A DNA stretch of 64,000 nucleotides from a virus (IMGVR_UViG_3300037449_000119:282-64281); one strand, 5' to 3'; positions 38,762 to 43,294 are shown, counted from the stretch's first letter. A program made the numbers and translations. The notes: generated by a model not told the origin, from the sequence alone.

Positions 38762-39201
38762 CGCTCTACACAGACGAAGCAGGACTTGATTTTATCGCAG
38801 CCAATGAAGGGCTGGTGCTAACCATTAGCAACGACAACGGACACCCTGTCATCGGCCACGGCCACGACCTCACTCATCAAGAGATTGCCGGCGGTATATA
38901 CGCCAACGGAATCACCACACTCCAAGCACAACTGATTCTTGAGCGTGACTGTCGCGAGTGGGATGCTGCGATCAACGCTCTCAACTGGCCCTTGAACCAG
39001 AATCAACATAACGCCCTCTGCGACTTTACACACAACCTGGGAGTGGGCAAGTTGCAACGGCTCGCGGCGCATGGACAAGAGCAGGTGTGTGTTCAGCTGC
39101 CGCGCTGGGTGTATGAGAAGCAGAACGGTGTTGAGGTGGTGAGCAAGGGGCTCGTCGCGCGACGCGCAAAGGATGTAACGCTGTATCAGACTCCATGCTG
39201 A
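38758..39201 (+). CDS. GH24 phage lysozyme (muramidase), apparent CTG start
   Basis: FIAANEG...D...IGHGH, LNQNQHNAL..F.HNLG, WVY, GLVARR; GGAGG SD precedes a CTGA overlap. Confidence 0.75.
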   Translation: MTLYTDEAGLDFIAANEGLVLTISNDNGHPVIGHGHDLTHQEIAGGIYANGITTLQAQLILERDCREWDAAINALNWPLNQNQHNALCDFTHNLGVGKLQRLAAHGQEQVCVQLPRWVYEKQNGVEVVSKGLVARRAKDVTLYQTPC

Positions 39202-40985
39202 AAACCGAAGACGCCAAGCCGGTGAAGCCCACGCCACAGCAACTACGCAAGCTGGGGCGTGAACGGTTTATCCGCGCACGCCGCGCCGGCTCCGCCTTTC
39301 AGCGTCAGCTCTCCAAGCTGGGCAACCACATCGGCGCGCTTGTAAAGAAGCACGCTCCTGGTGGCGTGGTTTCTGACTGGCGCGCTTTGCGCAAGGCGCT
39401 CAACGATTACGCCGCGCAAATTCGCCCCTGGGCAGAGTCCATCACAGAAAGCCTGCACACCGAAGTCGCGCAACGCGATGCACAGGCGTGGTTCCAGGCT
39501 GGCCGCGAGATAGGGCAACACCTACGCGAAGAGATTGCCTCCGCGCCCACAGGCAAGATGATGAAGTCGCTGCTCGCGGAGCAGGTAGACCTAATCACAT
39601 CGCTGCCCACTGAGGCGGCAGAGCGTGTGCACAAGCTCACTCTGCAGCGCATCGCCCAGGGGCGCAGGCCGGAGTCCTTGGCTCAGGAGATTCTGAAGAC
39701 CGGCGAAGTGACCGTCGCGCGCGCCCGTATGATCGCGCGCACCGAGACTGCACGCACAGCAGCGGCGCTCACTGAGGTTCGCGCAAAGCACATCGGCAGT
39801 GAAGGATACCTGTGGCGCACTGCAAATGACAGCGACGTTCGTCCCGCAATCGGCACACCAGGATTTTCGCAGCTCAACACCCTTGCGATGGGAAGCCATC
39901 GAAAACTTGAAGGTACTTTTCACCGTTGGGACGAGCCGCCTATCGCAGCGCCCACTGGCGAGCACGCACACCCAGGAAGCATATGGAACTGCCGCTGTTT
40001 TTCGTCTGATACGCTTGTGACTAAAGTCACAGGAATTGAAAAGTTATATCGGTCGTACTACCGAGGTGATCTTTGCCGCGTTACAATTGGAGACGCCGAG
40101 TTTACAGCGACACCGAATCACCCGATGCTCACGCAACGTGGTTGGGTGCATGTATGCGAACTCCAAGACAGCGATTACCTCGTTCAGGTGCTCCGTGATC
40201 CACACATCTTCGTCGAAGCCAACGTAGATAGTTTTCACGCCACATTTGGCGAGTTGTTTGGATCGTTGCCTGGACGCGTGGATGTGGCACCGGGAATTTT
40301 GTTTGATCTCTATGGCCGTGTTCCCGATGGCGATGTCCACACAAAGATCATCAATCAACTTCTGACGTGTGACAACGTAGCCAAGAGTCTCAAGCGCAGT
40401 GGCAATTTCACACTCGCCAAACCCAACAGCGGGGTTGAAGGTGCCATTTGTGGCGGCGGTGCGCATGTTGCTGAAACGTCGAGAGCGTGCAGCAGCGACG
40501 CGCTTCTTTCGCCGTTCCAAAGTCATTCTCCCCATGCTGATTTCGTTGGCACTGCTGACGCCTCTTCGAGTGATGCCGGCCTCATTGAGTCGCTGAGTGA
40601 TGGTCCAACGATTGACGTGGTAGAGCGCAGCGAGTTCGAGTTCGCTAATTCCAGAAAGGTACTTGGCGACGATCTTTTCAGCGGGGAGGTTTTTGCGCCC
40701 GTTGCCATGACCGACCGCAGGCGCCCAATGTTTGACGACGCCACCAGCAGCACGAATCGCTTTGCTGAGATTGTCCGGGCTAACTTTGAGCAAGGCCGCA
40801 ACGTCTTTAAGACGGGTGCCGGCATCTATGCGCTGCTTCCCTTCAGAAACGACTTCATTCGTAAGTTTCCGTTTTCGGGCCATGTTTACACGCTCCAAAC
40901 TGACGTTGGTTGGTATGGGGTATCAGCTATGTCTATTATAGCACAAAACTGTTGGGCAGAGCCAGTTTTACCGGATCGTATTTGA
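39195..40985 (+). CDS. MuF/SPP1 gp7-like head morphogenesis protein containing an intein
   Basis: RARMIARTET, YLWRTANDSDVR, H..LEG.F.RWDEPP, HPG..WNCR|C.AEPV. Confidence 0.88.
   Translation: MLKTEDAKPVKPTPQQLRKLGRERFIRARRAGSAFQRQLSKLGNHIGALVKKHAPGGVVSDWRALRKALNDYAAQIRPWAESITESLHTEVAQRDAQAWFQAGREIGQHLREEIASAPTGKMMKSLLAEQVDLITSLPTEAAERVHKLTLQRIAQGRRPESLAQEILKTGEVTVARARMIARTETARTAAALTEVRAKHIGSEGYLWRTANDSDVRPAIGTPGFSQLNTLAMGSHRKLEGTFHRWDEPPIAAPTGEHAHPGSIWNCRCFSSDTLVTKVTGIEKLYRSYYRGDLCRVTIGDAEFTATPNHPMLTQRGWVHVCELQDSDYLVQVLRDPHIFVEANVDSFHATFGELFGSLPGRVDVAPGILFDLYGRVPDGDVHTKIINQLLTCDNVAKSLKRSGNFTLAKPNSGVEGAICGGGAHVAETSRACSSDALLSPFQSHSPHADFVGTADASSSDAGLIESLSDGPTIDVVERSEFEFANSRKVLGDDLFSGEVFAPVAMTDRRRPMFDDATSSTNRFAEIVRANFEQGRNVFKTGAGIYALLPFRNDFIRKFPFSGHVYTLQTDVGWYGVSAMSIIAQNCWAEPVLPDRI
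40044..40883 (-). CDS. HTH-HTH + Vsr/DUF559-like PD-(D/E)XK endonuclease encoded antisense inside the intein
   Basis: GTRLKDVAALLKVSPDNL; YLSGISELELAALYHVNRWTI..RL...G; GECEIATALETLGYVVTRQ...CVDIAIGNTAIEIK...LAKCGVKTIYV; GGAG SD at 40893-40896. Confidence 0.75.
   Translation of the reverse strand: MARKRKLTNEVVSEGKQRIDAGTRLKDVAALLKVSPDNLSKAIRAAGGVVKHWAPAVGHGNGRKNLPAEKIVAKYLSGISELELAALYHVNRWTITQRLNEAGITRRGVSSANEISMGRMTLERRKKRVAAARSRRFSNMRTAATNGTFNPAVGFGECEIATALETLGYVVTRQKLIDDLCVDIAIGNTAIEIKQNSRCHIHASRQRSKQLAKCGVKTIYVGFDEDVWITEHLNEVIAVLEFAYMHPTTLREHRVIRCRCKLGVSNCNAAKITSVVRPI
40935..40945 (-). promoter_or_regulatory. extended -10 promoter for the antisense nuclease
   Basis: TGTGCTATAAT on the - strand, within the block G codons (ATT ATA GCA CA). 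Confidence 0.65.
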
Positions 40986-41083
40986 GGGTTAGGTGCTGCC
41001 GGACAGAATATAGGTCCGCCGTGGTATCGTGAAAAATGAAGTGAAACCTGTGCTGGCGAGCCCAGCGCAACAAGGGAGAAAAT

Positions 41084-41896: not shown

Positions 41897-43294
41897 GTGG
41901 AAGCCACAGCATTTCGTGTAAGCGAGAAGATCGGGCCAAACATGGCGTGGACAGATGAGCGGTTTCTCGTCTGCTACGGCGTGCCGATTGCTCGCACCGG
42001 AGTGCTGATCTACGGAGCCGGCGAACGCCCCGAGGTGCAGCCTGGGCCTGACGGCCTCATTCGCATCGAGCGACTGGACGAGGATGTGTTTGCAGAGGAG
42101 AGTCTCAAGAGCCTGCAAATCAAGCCGCTGCTCAACGAGCATCCCGCGTTCGACGTGAACCCTGAGAACTATCAAGAGCTAACAGTGGGGTCCGTTGTCA
42201 ACCCTCGTCGCGGAGAGGGCATCTTCGATGATTGCATCATTGCCGATGTAGTGGTAATGGATCGGCAGGCTATTGAGGATGTGCTCAGTGATAAGCGTGA
42301 GGTAAGTTGTGGGTACGACTGCAAGTATTTTGACCTGGGCGAAGGCCGAGGGCGGCAGACCAACATCATTTACAACCACGTGGCGCTGGTAGAAAGTGGT
42401 CGCTGTGGCCCACGTTGCAGCATCAAGGACCACGCCATGCGAAAGGAAACAACGATGAAGACGAACAGAGTGCGTCCGTGGTTGGACAAGCTGCGCTCGC
42501 TGGGCAGCGCCATTACACAGGACAAGAAGGCCACCTTTGACGAGGCTGTCGAGGAGGCGGAGCGCGAAGCCAAAACCAAGGATGCCGAGGAAGAGGCCGA
42601 AGAGCGCGAGAAGAACAAAACCAAGGACGACGACCTGTCGAAGCGCATGGAGGAGCTGGAGGCCAAGCACGAGGAGCATGGCAAGCAGCTCGAAACCCAC
42701 GACGCCAAGCTGAAGACCCACGACTCTGACATCGCCGAGCTGAAGGACAAGATCGGTGAAGGCGACAAAACAGCCGACGCCGAAGAGGACAAGGAGATCG
42801 AGGGTGAGCTGAAAGAAGAAGCTCCTCCGGGCAGTGGCGACAGCGCCATGAAAGCCAAGGACTCGGCGTACCTCGCTCCGACCTGGCAGAGCACCAAAGC
42901 TCTGGCCGAGATCCTCGTTCCCGGCATTCACATGCCCACCTTCGACAGCAAGGGTGACCCGAAGATCACATACAAGGGCATCTGCGACTTCCGGCGCCGG
43001 GCGTTGAGCATGGGTCTGCTGACCGCGGACACCAACCAGGTCATCGCCGAAGTTCGCGGTGGCCGCACCTTGGACTCCAAGGACATCGCAGCCATGAAGT
43101 GCGGCGAAGTTCGTCAACTGTTCTACGCGGCCGGCGCGGCCAAGAAAGCAGCCAACACCAGCGACGCGCACTCCGCAGGGCACTTCACCAATCTCGAAGG
43201 TTCAGGCGGCGGAGTTGGCGTTACCAGCAAGCTGAAGACGCCCGCCGACATCAACGAGGAAAACCGCAGGCGGTACGCCGCTGGCGACAAGTAG
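41897..43294 (+). CDS. DUF2213 prohead protease/scaffold protein
   Basis: VPIARTG, LLNEHP, REVSCGYDC, YNHVALVESGRCGPRCSI; acidic coiled-coil C-terminal half. Confidence 0.88.
   Translation: MEATAFRVSEKIGPNMAWTDERFLVCYGVPIARTGVLIYGAGERPEVQPGPDGLIRIERLDEDVFAEESLKSLQIKPLLNEHPAFDVNPENYQELTVGSVVNPRRGEGIFDDCIIADVVVMDRQAIEDVLSDKREVSCGYDCKYFDLGEGRGRQTNIIYNHVALVESGRCGPRCSIKDHAMRKETTMKTNRVRPWLDKLRSLGSAITQDKKATFDEAVEEAEREAKTKDAEEEAEEREKNKTKDDDLSKRMEELEAKHEEHGKQLETHDAKLKTHDSDIAELKDKIGEGDKTADAEEDKEIEGELKEEAPPGSGDSAMKAKDSAYLAPTWQSTKALAEILVPGIHMPTFDSKGDPKITYKGICDFRRRALSMGLLTADTNQVIAEVRGGRTLDSKDIAAMKCGEVRQLFYAAGAAKKAANTSDAHSAGHFTNLEGSGGGVGVTSKLKTPADINEENRRRYAAGDK

Follow-up and report, generated by a model that had tools for sequence, protein, structure and literature searches.

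Inteins that carry their homing endonuclease on the opposite DNA strand have been described in actinobacteriophages. Gosselin, Arsenault and Gogarten (bioRxiv 10.1101/2025.01.02.630785) report LAGLIDADG or VSR-like endonucleases encoded antisense within full inteins of minor capsid, terminase, DNA polymerase and thymidylate synthase genes, the in-frame centre of which is without recognisable structure. The VSR-like product in that work matches Vsr (1CW0) with a Z score of 10.6 over residues 144-267, and 3R3P by HHpred. Earlier antisense LAGLIDADG inteins, in Synechocystis DnaX and in a Chloroflexus SpoVR-like protein, are cited in the same preprint (Gorbalenya 1998; Gogarten 2002). Vsr-like endonucleases are also known from "fractured genes", mainly of phages, in which a free-standing Vsr-like or GIY-YIG gene lies between the halves of a split intein (Dassa et al. 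2009, PMC2677866), and from I-Bth0305I, characterised in the study that named the EDxHD family (Taylor et al. 2011, PMC3239194; PDB 3R3P). Here we analyse a 64,000-nucleotide stretch of viral DNA (IMGVR_UViG_3300037449_000119, positions 282-64281; "the window"), in which a MuF-like head morphogenesis gene is interrupted by an intein whose interior encodes a nuclease-like protein on the other strand. The window covers nearly all of an IMG/VR virus record of 64,281 bp that has direct terminal repeats and is rated 100% complete. We conclude that it very probably holds a mobile class-1 intein at the NCRC motif of MuF, with the homing endonuclease as a separate antisense gene, codon against codon. 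The original prediction for this DNA had taken the architecture to be undescribed. That part does not stand, since the preprint reports it, and the window copy is a further example of it.

The MuF intein and the gene opposite it

The MuF gene is a single continuous open reading frame (ORF) that matches Phage_Mu_F (PF04233, E 1.5e-12) and phrog_324 (head morphogenesis, E 2.6e-50), and its residues 119-586 match phrog_15127 (E 2.3e-46). The inserted intein shows, in order, Cys1, block B (TPNHP), block F (FSGHVYTLQ), block G (IIAQN) and then Cys+1 (TGT at 40950), in agreement with the original prediction of a 318-amino acid (aa) intein with its splicing blocks in MuF, coordinates included. The predicted spliced product reads NCRCWAEP across the junction, a motif that is found in relatives. 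On the sense strand, the locus is composed of the following parts.

39195..40985, + strand: MuF-like minor capsid / head morphogenesis gene, 596 codons, one continuous ORF including the intein
39195..39995, + strand: N-extein, 267 codons, ending in ...GSIWNCR, from the alignment with 29 MuF-intein homologues
39996..40949, + strand: class-1 intein, 318 codons, Cys268 to Asn585, with blocks A, B, F and G, from the alignment and the AlphaFold2 (AF2) fold
39996..40205, + strand: N-terminal splicing region, blocks A and B, intein residues 1 to ~70, with a pLDDT (predicted score in the local distance difference test) of 87-95 and sense-frame constraint
40400..40736, + strand: intein centre in the sense frame, residues 136-247, open but neither confidently folded nor constrained at the sense level
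40845..40949, + strand: C-terminal splicing region, blocks F and G, pLDDT 87-96, the complement of which holds the putative antisense ribosome-binding site (RBS) and the start codon
40950..40985, + strand: C-extein CWAEPVLPDRI (11 residues) and stop codon

On the opposite strand, an ORF spans 40898-40044 when begun at TTG, and the ATG at 40883, which is the start favoured by homologues, gives a 279-aa protein. As originally proposed, the antisense and sense frames are in exact codon register. A TTA Leu codon of the sense frame lies opposite the antisense stop codon TAA (40046-40044), and the block F His codon CAT (in G-H-V-Y) lies opposite the antisense ATG, so that the N-terminal M-x-R-K of the antisense protein is the complement of F-S-G-H. 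From 40044 on, the N-terminal splicing region shares its DNA with the unconstrained tail at the C terminus of the antisense protein. The 64,281-bp phage genome contains one copy of this gene, the parts of which are listed below.

40883..40044, - strand: putative homing endonuclease gene, 279 codons and a stop, in codon register with the intein frame, from homologues, AF2 and ratios of nonsynonymous to synonymous substitution rates (dN/dS)
40896..40893, - strand: GGAG, Shine-Dalgarno-like, opposite the block F Leu-Gln codons and 9 nt upstream of the antisense ATG (40883-40881)
40581..40859, - strand: two helix-turn-helix (HTH) units, antisense residues 14-50 and 73-106 (P0002 numbering), AF2 helices with pLDDT about 96 and profile matches
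40149..40436, - strand: Vsr-like / PD-(D/E)xK nuclease domain, antisense residues 155-250, from Foldseek, profiles and invariant residues

Comparison with described systems

Like the actinophage inteins with an antisense VSR-like gene, the intein in the window is a continuous, non-split MuF intein with a complete endonuclease ORF antisense in its interior, and it combines a C-terminal Vsr-like core (here at ~155-250) with a helical N-terminal half and a structureless sense centre. The two groups appear homologous, in that the window protein matches the antisense strand of MuF in the Gordonia phages Angelicage, Fosterous and Affeca (tblastn, E 9e-6 to 8e-5, 85% coverage). They differ in origin. 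The window phage comes from peat metagenomes, and most of the homologues that were found belong to phages of Gammaproteobacteria (Salmonella, Klebsiella, Edwardsiella, Pantoea, Vibrio and Idiomarinaceae) or to IMG/VR contigs. In comparison with the inteins of the preprint, the antisense start and putative RBS here lie within block F and the tail of the gene runs through block B, so that both ends overlap splicing blocks, and the insertion point is NCR^C rather than N^CRC. The antisense LAGLIDADG inteins of Synechocystis DnaX and the Chloroflexus SpoVR-like protein, compared through their citation in the preprint, likewise have the endonuclease opposite a continuous intein, but the nuclease in the window is Vsr-like and its host gene is that of a phage, not of a cell.

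The likeness to other systems is partial. Fractured genes (PMC2677866) share a Vsr-like endonuclease that is a gene of its own in the intein locus, and the model of a gene invading an intein also fits. In those loci, however, the endonuclease is on the same strand, the host gene is in two ORFs and splicing is in trans, whereas the window has an intact host ORF with a codon-aligned endonuclease gene antisense to it. I-Bth0305I is phage-borne too and likewise has its DNA-binding region in the N-terminal part, with a Vsr-like catalytic domain at the C terminus. Its gene resides in a group I intron and its DNA-binding part is NUMOD, unlike the intein and HTH units seen here, and the sequence similarity is marginal (profile E 0.03). 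Because the invariant residues of the window family are E162, Q179, D188 and E197, with no invariant His, membership of the EDxHD family is not established. Finally, canonical large inteins (PI-SceI, PI-PfuI) have a HINT domain split at the same topological point by a mobility module and show the same homing-element behaviour, with presence/absence polymorphism. Unlike in these canonical LAGLIDADG/HNH inteins, the mobility module in the window is outside the intein polypeptide, and the in-frame insert appears to be an unconstrained linker.

Predicted folds of the two products

The sense intein polypeptide was folded by AF2 with 29 homologues. Most of residues 1-70, 80-125 and 250-318 score 84-96 in pLDDT, against 29-44 for residues 136-247. 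The modelled termini superimpose on the Ssp DnaB mini-intein (1mi8) with a Z score of 10.7 and a root mean square deviation of 1.5 Å over 104 residues, and other structural matches include 8ubs, 4o1r and 2imz, with the NrdJ-1 split intein, NpuDnaB and Mtu RecA among the proteins matched. In the PDB, 59 chains match the termini with a Z score of at least 8, and those listed are all inteins or Hedgehog/BIL HINT domains. According to this model, the intein termini form a HINT fold. The block A nucleophile Cys1 (39996-39998) is invariant across 30 aligned homologues, and C1, T39, N41, H42, P43, H296, V297 and N318 are all invariant in the alignment of sense homologues, many of which have a precomputed match to Pfam Intein_splicing (PF14890). 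The sense centre shows no match to LAGLIDADG or HNH, the absence of which the original prediction had noted, or to any other Pfam endonuclease family, and its pLDDT is below 50 for residues 136-247. A search of GenBank phages with the intein DNA (blastn) gave no match.

The antisense protein, folded by AF2 with a 60-sequence alignment, has a mean pLDDT of 88.4 and a predicted template modelling score of 0.70. The model comprises two three-helix HTH units, a long helix and an alpha/beta domain (about 155-250), followed by ~25 last residues, overlapping intein blocks A-B, with a pLDDT of 54-68. The top PDB matches in Foldseek are 3r3p, the catalytic domain of I-Bth0305I (probability 1.0, template modelling (TM) score 0.66), and the DUF559-like putative endonuclease 3hrl (TM score 0.68), and the same two structures are matched in a profile search of PDB sequences with the antisense family (3hrl, E 0.002; 3r3p, E 0.03). 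The HTH units have profile matches to PDB sequences that include 2lvs (E 6e-5), the gamma-delta resolvase HTH and the Sleeping Beauty PAI subdomain. All four family-invariant nuclease residues are present in the window protein, K199 is conserved in close relatives, and the nearest ones share D-x8-E-x-K. Among 60 family members, Pfam matches are to HTH_23 (23/60), HTH_7 (19/60), REase_MTES_1575 (11/60) and DUF559 (4/60). The original description of this ORF, as two HTH motifs and a Vsr/DUF559-type nuclease, is thus borne out by the model and its 3r3p and 3hrl matches.

Conservation of the arrangement in homologues

The antisense protein belongs to a large family, with 777 cluster representatives (50% identity) at E<=1e-3 in phmmer, of which the closest homologue (P0003) is just 51% identical. 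A tblastn search of GenBank phages found 25 records with 25-32% identity. Among the 11 of these that were inspected at the locus, 10 have the nuclease match opposite one continuous head/MuF ORF: Edwardsiella MSW-3, Klebsiella KpTDp1 and P12620-1, Gordonia Angelicage and Fosterous, Idiomarinaceae 1N2-2, Vibrio PvVp04, Salmonella L223 and SGP009, and Pantoea AH01. Seven of the GenBank loci were checked for the antisense ORF, which in every one is unbroken and keeps the same phase. In all ten records the long head/MuF ORF is the only one annotated over the region, the antisense nuclease gene being left out. A scan of IMG/VR with an 8-sequence alignment added 47 loci, with a G+C content of 35-65%, and in every one of them the codon-aligned opposite frame is stop-free across the nuclease match. 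The open stretch of that frame is at least 398 codons, and 514-876 codons in the 44 loci where it does not end at a contig edge. Most of these loci have the MuF NCRC junction. Several are near-duplicates, so that independent lineages number nearer 25-30. Searches for related loci with P0002 alone (viral contigs), with the 60-sequence alignment and with P0003 (metagenome contigs) were empty.

The start of the antisense gene is conserved together with block F. Of 36 distinct homologous contexts, 33 have CAT as the block F His codon (antisense ATG) and 3 have CAC (antisense GTG). About two-thirds of the 36 have a Shine-Dalgarno-like motif at -11 to -13, mostly GGAG or GAGG at -12/-13.

The nuclease also exists outside inteins. 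In Acinetobacter phage vB_AbaM_IME285 (39% G+C), a free-standing homologue, the opposite strand of which is full of stop codons, lies tail-to-tail with an intein-less MuF gene, just after the MuF stop codon (455-1348, +, against 1342-2055, -), with a 7-nt overlap and ...MCKCRAKL... in MuF. This form may be either ancestor or derivative of the intein-embedded one, and it fits a free-standing endonuclease gene invading an intein, or the reverse.

The open sense frame and the G+C content of the phage

The antisense gene can leave the intein frame open by avoiding the codons TTA, CTA and TCA. It contains none of them, against 3.9 expected from the codon usage of the window; that it must avoid them was pointed out originally. 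For each locus, we computed the probability of avoiding all three given its synonymous usage. In the window (57% G+C), synonymous resampling gives P = 0.028, which is weak on its own. The values in homologues are the following.

Edwardsiella MSW-3: P 5e-4
Klebsiella KpTDp1: P 2.6e-4
Salmonella / Pantoea: P 3.5e-4
Idiomarinaceae: P 5e-7
Vibrio phage (42% G+C): P 6e-9
Gordonia (68% G+C): P 0.15

The caution in the original prediction, that an open frame comes more easily in a G+C-rich genome, was thus fair for the window. In homologues at 42-52% G+C, P is 5e-4 to 6e-9. The sense frame is open in all 10 GenBank and 47 IMG/VR intein loci, which span 35-68% G+C overall.

A second long antisense ORF is found in the window, at 42179-43183 (-), within a + strand gene at 41897-43294 for a Lys/Glu-rich protein. 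It has 334 codons, is of low complexity, rich in Gly, Val and Leu, and is probably a chance shadow ORF. Its existence means that ORF length alone says little in this genome and, with the P value of 0.028, that the decisive evidence must come from outside the window.

Frame-specific selection

We estimated dN/dS by the method of Nei and Gojobori (NG86) in both frames for homologue pairs. Since this estimator is biased in overlapping frames, the argument rests on the contrast of the intein centre with exteins and splicing blocks and not on absolute values, which are as follows.

Salmonella/Pantoea, centre: sense 0.97, antisense 0.13
Gordonia, centre: sense 0.79, antisense 0.14
Edwardsiella/Klebsiella, centre: sense 0.84, antisense 0.24
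All informative pairs, blocks A/B, blocks F/G and exteins: sense 0.02-0.31, antisense about 0.7-5

Three further IMG/VR lineage groups (19 pairs) have centre values of 0.08-0.37 antisense and 0.48-0.97 sense. For intein residues 1-50, homologue pairs give 0.02-0.16 in the sense frame and at least 0.7 in the antisense frame, and for blocks F/G the sense value is 0.05-0.31 in the pairs with enough substitutions (L007/L008, L004/L009, L001/L002). Constraint swaps strand at about intein residues 50-75 and again at block F. The same swap is visible in raw counts, considering that sense codon position 1 is antisense position 3. Salmonella L223 and Pantoea AH01 differ in the N-extein (codons 1-240) by 66, 45 and 143 substitutions at sense positions 1, 2 and 3, and the corresponding figures for the intein centre (codons 321-480) are 51, 9 and 19. 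The comparison of strands across homologues that had been proposed originally thus finds the antisense ORF kept, with 0.08-0.37 antisense versus 0.5-1.0 sense. In homologues, clear purifying selection acts on the antisense Vsr-like gene, and the sense centre drifts.

Conserved motifs can be read in the same way. DFHGD in the sense centre is the exact complement of the antisense catalytic strand (VAVE), and the conserved YWVIRC near the antisense C terminus is the complement of sense block B (TPNH). The AF2 confidence at sense residues 80-125 and 250-282 comes without matching sense constraint (dN/dS is 0.5-1.8 for residues 76-120) and is possibly mirrored covariation from the antisense protein. 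A hidden endonuclease in the sense centre is ruled out by the lack of a Pfam match, the pLDDT below 50 and a sense dN/dS near 1.

Presence, absence and position of the intein

In Jerseyvirus-type MuF records, an 816-bp intein is present in 56 of 379. The intein-minus records that were sampled (about 30 of those listed) match the exteins only, in two pieces, ~1044 bp, or 52-57% of the gene, the pattern that an empty site would give. Three intein-less alleles have AHPN|CRS contiguous, precisely where intein-plus alleles read AHPN|C...AHN|CRS, and the DNA of the empty site is ...CACCCTAAC|TGTCGGTCA.... Pantoea AH01 and Salmonella L223 are 88.0% identical in nucleotide sequence over the inteins and 65.8% over the exteins. 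The nearest extein relatives of two intein-plus phages, L223 and demigod, are the intein-minus f18SE (92.0%) and SS3e (93.6%), respectively. This conflict between intein and extein histories was judged from identities and not from a tree. On such sequence comparisons, presence/absence together with apparent intein transfer between diverged exteins is the signature expected of homing.

The window intein is inserted at NCR^C (39987-39998, 40947-40955). Among the 48 other sense homologues, 47 have it at N^CRC, two codons upstream, which accounts for the large majority, or at ARTE^C, and every GenBank or IMG/VR locus with a readable junction has one of these two sites. The sole homologue with the NCR^C site of the window is P0154, which is 37% identical over the intein region. 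Since NCRC is regenerated from either position, the intein has apparently either shifted by 6 bp or entered anew at the second Cys. The ARTE^C site, which follows the conserved (I/L)ARTE of MuF, is used in P0174, P0177, P0178, P0181, P0185, P0192, P0196 and P0197, and the intein lineage has accordingly settled in at least three positions of the same host protein.

Peat metagenomes of several studies contain sequence identical to the window. In addition, one 110-nt peat-metagenome contig matches MuF over 30 nt (39936-39965) and diverges from 39965, ~30 nt before the intein site, with a diverging part in which the frame would close two codons on. Possible sources are another MuF allele, a recombination junction and an assembly chimera.

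Transcription signals around the antisense gene

The 98-bp spacer after the MuF stop codon contains a candidate promoter that faces the antisense gene.

41035..41007, - strand: candidate sigma-70-like promoter TTTTCA-17-TATATT, by consensus match only

This candidate is weak (9/12 consensus matches), 3 such sites occur in the region versus 0.7 expected, and the match is no evidence of function. A terminator scan of the region gave terminator-like matches at chance level. One peat metatranscriptome has two 151-nt contigs, at 40314-40463 and 40577-40727, both in the intein centre (nuclease and HTH coding parts), with none over the N-extein or the rest of MuF. They are unstranded, of depth 2 and possibly DNA carry-over, and are not evidence of antisense transcription. 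In Edwardsiella MSW-3, six small genes (gp12 to gp07; 488-2348, +) lie directly upstream of the antisense nuclease gene, on the same strand and opposing the head genes, so that an opposite-strand transcription unit may end with the nuclease gene in that phage.

Alternative explanations

Several observations weigh against a splicing, mobile intein with an antisense homing endonuclease in the window. The penultimate residue of the intein is Gln and the usual His is absent, and the match to PF14890 scores 20.6 bits (E 4e-4) against a cut-off of 35.8. The window nuclease has no Pfam match of its own. To these are added the modest P value of the window and the bias of NG86 in overlapping frames. 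Moreover, the closest antisense homologue is 51% identical and the peat DNA contigs (four runs) show no variants relative to the window, so that selection was tested in relatives of the window's lineage. Three alternative explanations were considered.

It is improbable, if less so than the other two alternatives, that the antisense protein is real but not, or no longer, a homing enzyme, and that the intein is vertically inherited in this lineage. The protein might then be a domesticated DNA-binding nuclease or regulator, with a role, for instance, in DNA processing or in competing with co-infecting phages. Several VSR-like intein groups do look vertically inherited in the preprint, yet in Jerseyviruses presence and absence are precise and the element is more alike between phages than the exteins are. 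The best structural match of the protein is a characterised homing endonuclease, and its gene is inside the intein in 47/47 IMG/VR and 10/10 intein-bearing GenBank loci, even if the free-standing homologues behind intein-less MuF in Acinetobacter phages, the sheer size of the family and the lack of near relatives of the window copy that show mobility are what a domesticated protein might also leave.

It is very unlikely that the intein no longer splices, MuF working with a C-terminal extension or as a truncated product and the frame being open from recent ancestry and G+C content. Under this explanation the Gln at the penultimate position would count, but a penultimate His in block G is not universal in active inteins, and the residue varies across this family (K, R, S, H, Q). 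The low PF14890 score is set against the presence of the family-invariant C1, T39, H42, N318 and Cys+1, and against strong purifying selection in the sense frame on the splicing blocks of relatives. The C-extein of just 11 residues and the P value of 0.028 in the window speak for this explanation, but the frame is also open in relatives at 35-42% G+C and in those with C-exteins of 100-480 residues. In addition, splicing would recreate the conserved NCRC.

That the codon bias of a G+C-rich gene has by chance thrown up the antisense ORF as a shadow, and that the sense centre is itself a new in-frame endonuclease or some other domain, can practically be dismissed and was ruled out by frame-specific dN/dS, fold and the free-standing homologue: the chance-long 334-aa ORF elsewhere in the window, the alignable sense translation among homologues and the AF2 confidence of sense residues 80-125 are outweighed by a centre dN/dS of about 1 sense versus 0.08-0.37 antisense, by sense residues 136-247 with a pLDDT below 50 versus 88 for an antisense product with a nuclease fold, by a free-standing homologue opposite a stop-filled strand, and by sense motifs such as DFHGD that exactly complement the antisense catalytic strand.

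Proposed mechanism

The mobile intein with an antisense endonuclease would work as follows. Sense translation reads through the whole insert, and selection on its product acts only on the ~70 N-terminal and ~35 C-terminal residues that make up the predicted HINT fold, the ~200-residue sense middle being a tolerated linker that needs just the absence of stops. Splicing by the HINT ends would join ...NCR to CWAEPVLPDRI and restore NCRC. The antisense strand encodes a protein of 279 aa, in which two HTH units precede a Vsr-like PD-(D/E)xK nuclease, and its avoidance of TTA, CTA and TCA is what keeps the intein frame open. In homing, the nuclease would cut an intein-less MuF allele near ...AACTGCCGC|TGTTGGGCA..., and recombinational repair during co-infection would copy the element into the cut allele. 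The folds of both products, dN/dS by frame, both frames open in ~60 loci, and presence/absence with transfer in Jerseyviruses lead us to regard it as a dual-coding mobile element, which upholds the central proposal of the original prediction.

A stronger version, in which the two strands are mutually dependent in three respects at once, is tentative, and we hold it to be rather doubtful as a whole. Block F would double as RBS and start of the antisense gene, and it would be this gene, rather than the chemistry of splicing, that maintains the near-invariant Gly-His and the strong preference for CAT over CAC. Transcription of the antisense gene would start at a promoter of its own, at a time differing from that of the late head operon, and homing would be uncoupled from capsid assembly, as proposed originally. 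The slide between NCR^C and N^CRC would reflect a nuclease target that tolerates re-insertion at either Cys of NCRC.

Significance for phage inteins

What is new here is that the layout is widespread outside actinophages, that the antisense start lies in the block F His codon, and that the insertion site is shifted by two codons. Relative to the preprint as consulted (bioRxiv 10.1101/2025.01.02.630785), the comparison adds that phages of Proteobacteria and metagenomic viruses commonly have the layout, over 35-68% G+C, and that purifying selection on the antisense gene goes with a drifting sense centre. The antisense nuclease gene is almost never annotated, GenBank showing only the head-protein ORF over the region, and a nuclease family of 777 representatives is thereby liable to be missed or mis-called in annotation. 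Jerseyviruses are cultivable, and their MuF alleles occur naturally with and without the intein. The arrangement supports a view in which splicing domains come first and are then invaded by free-standing endonuclease genes.

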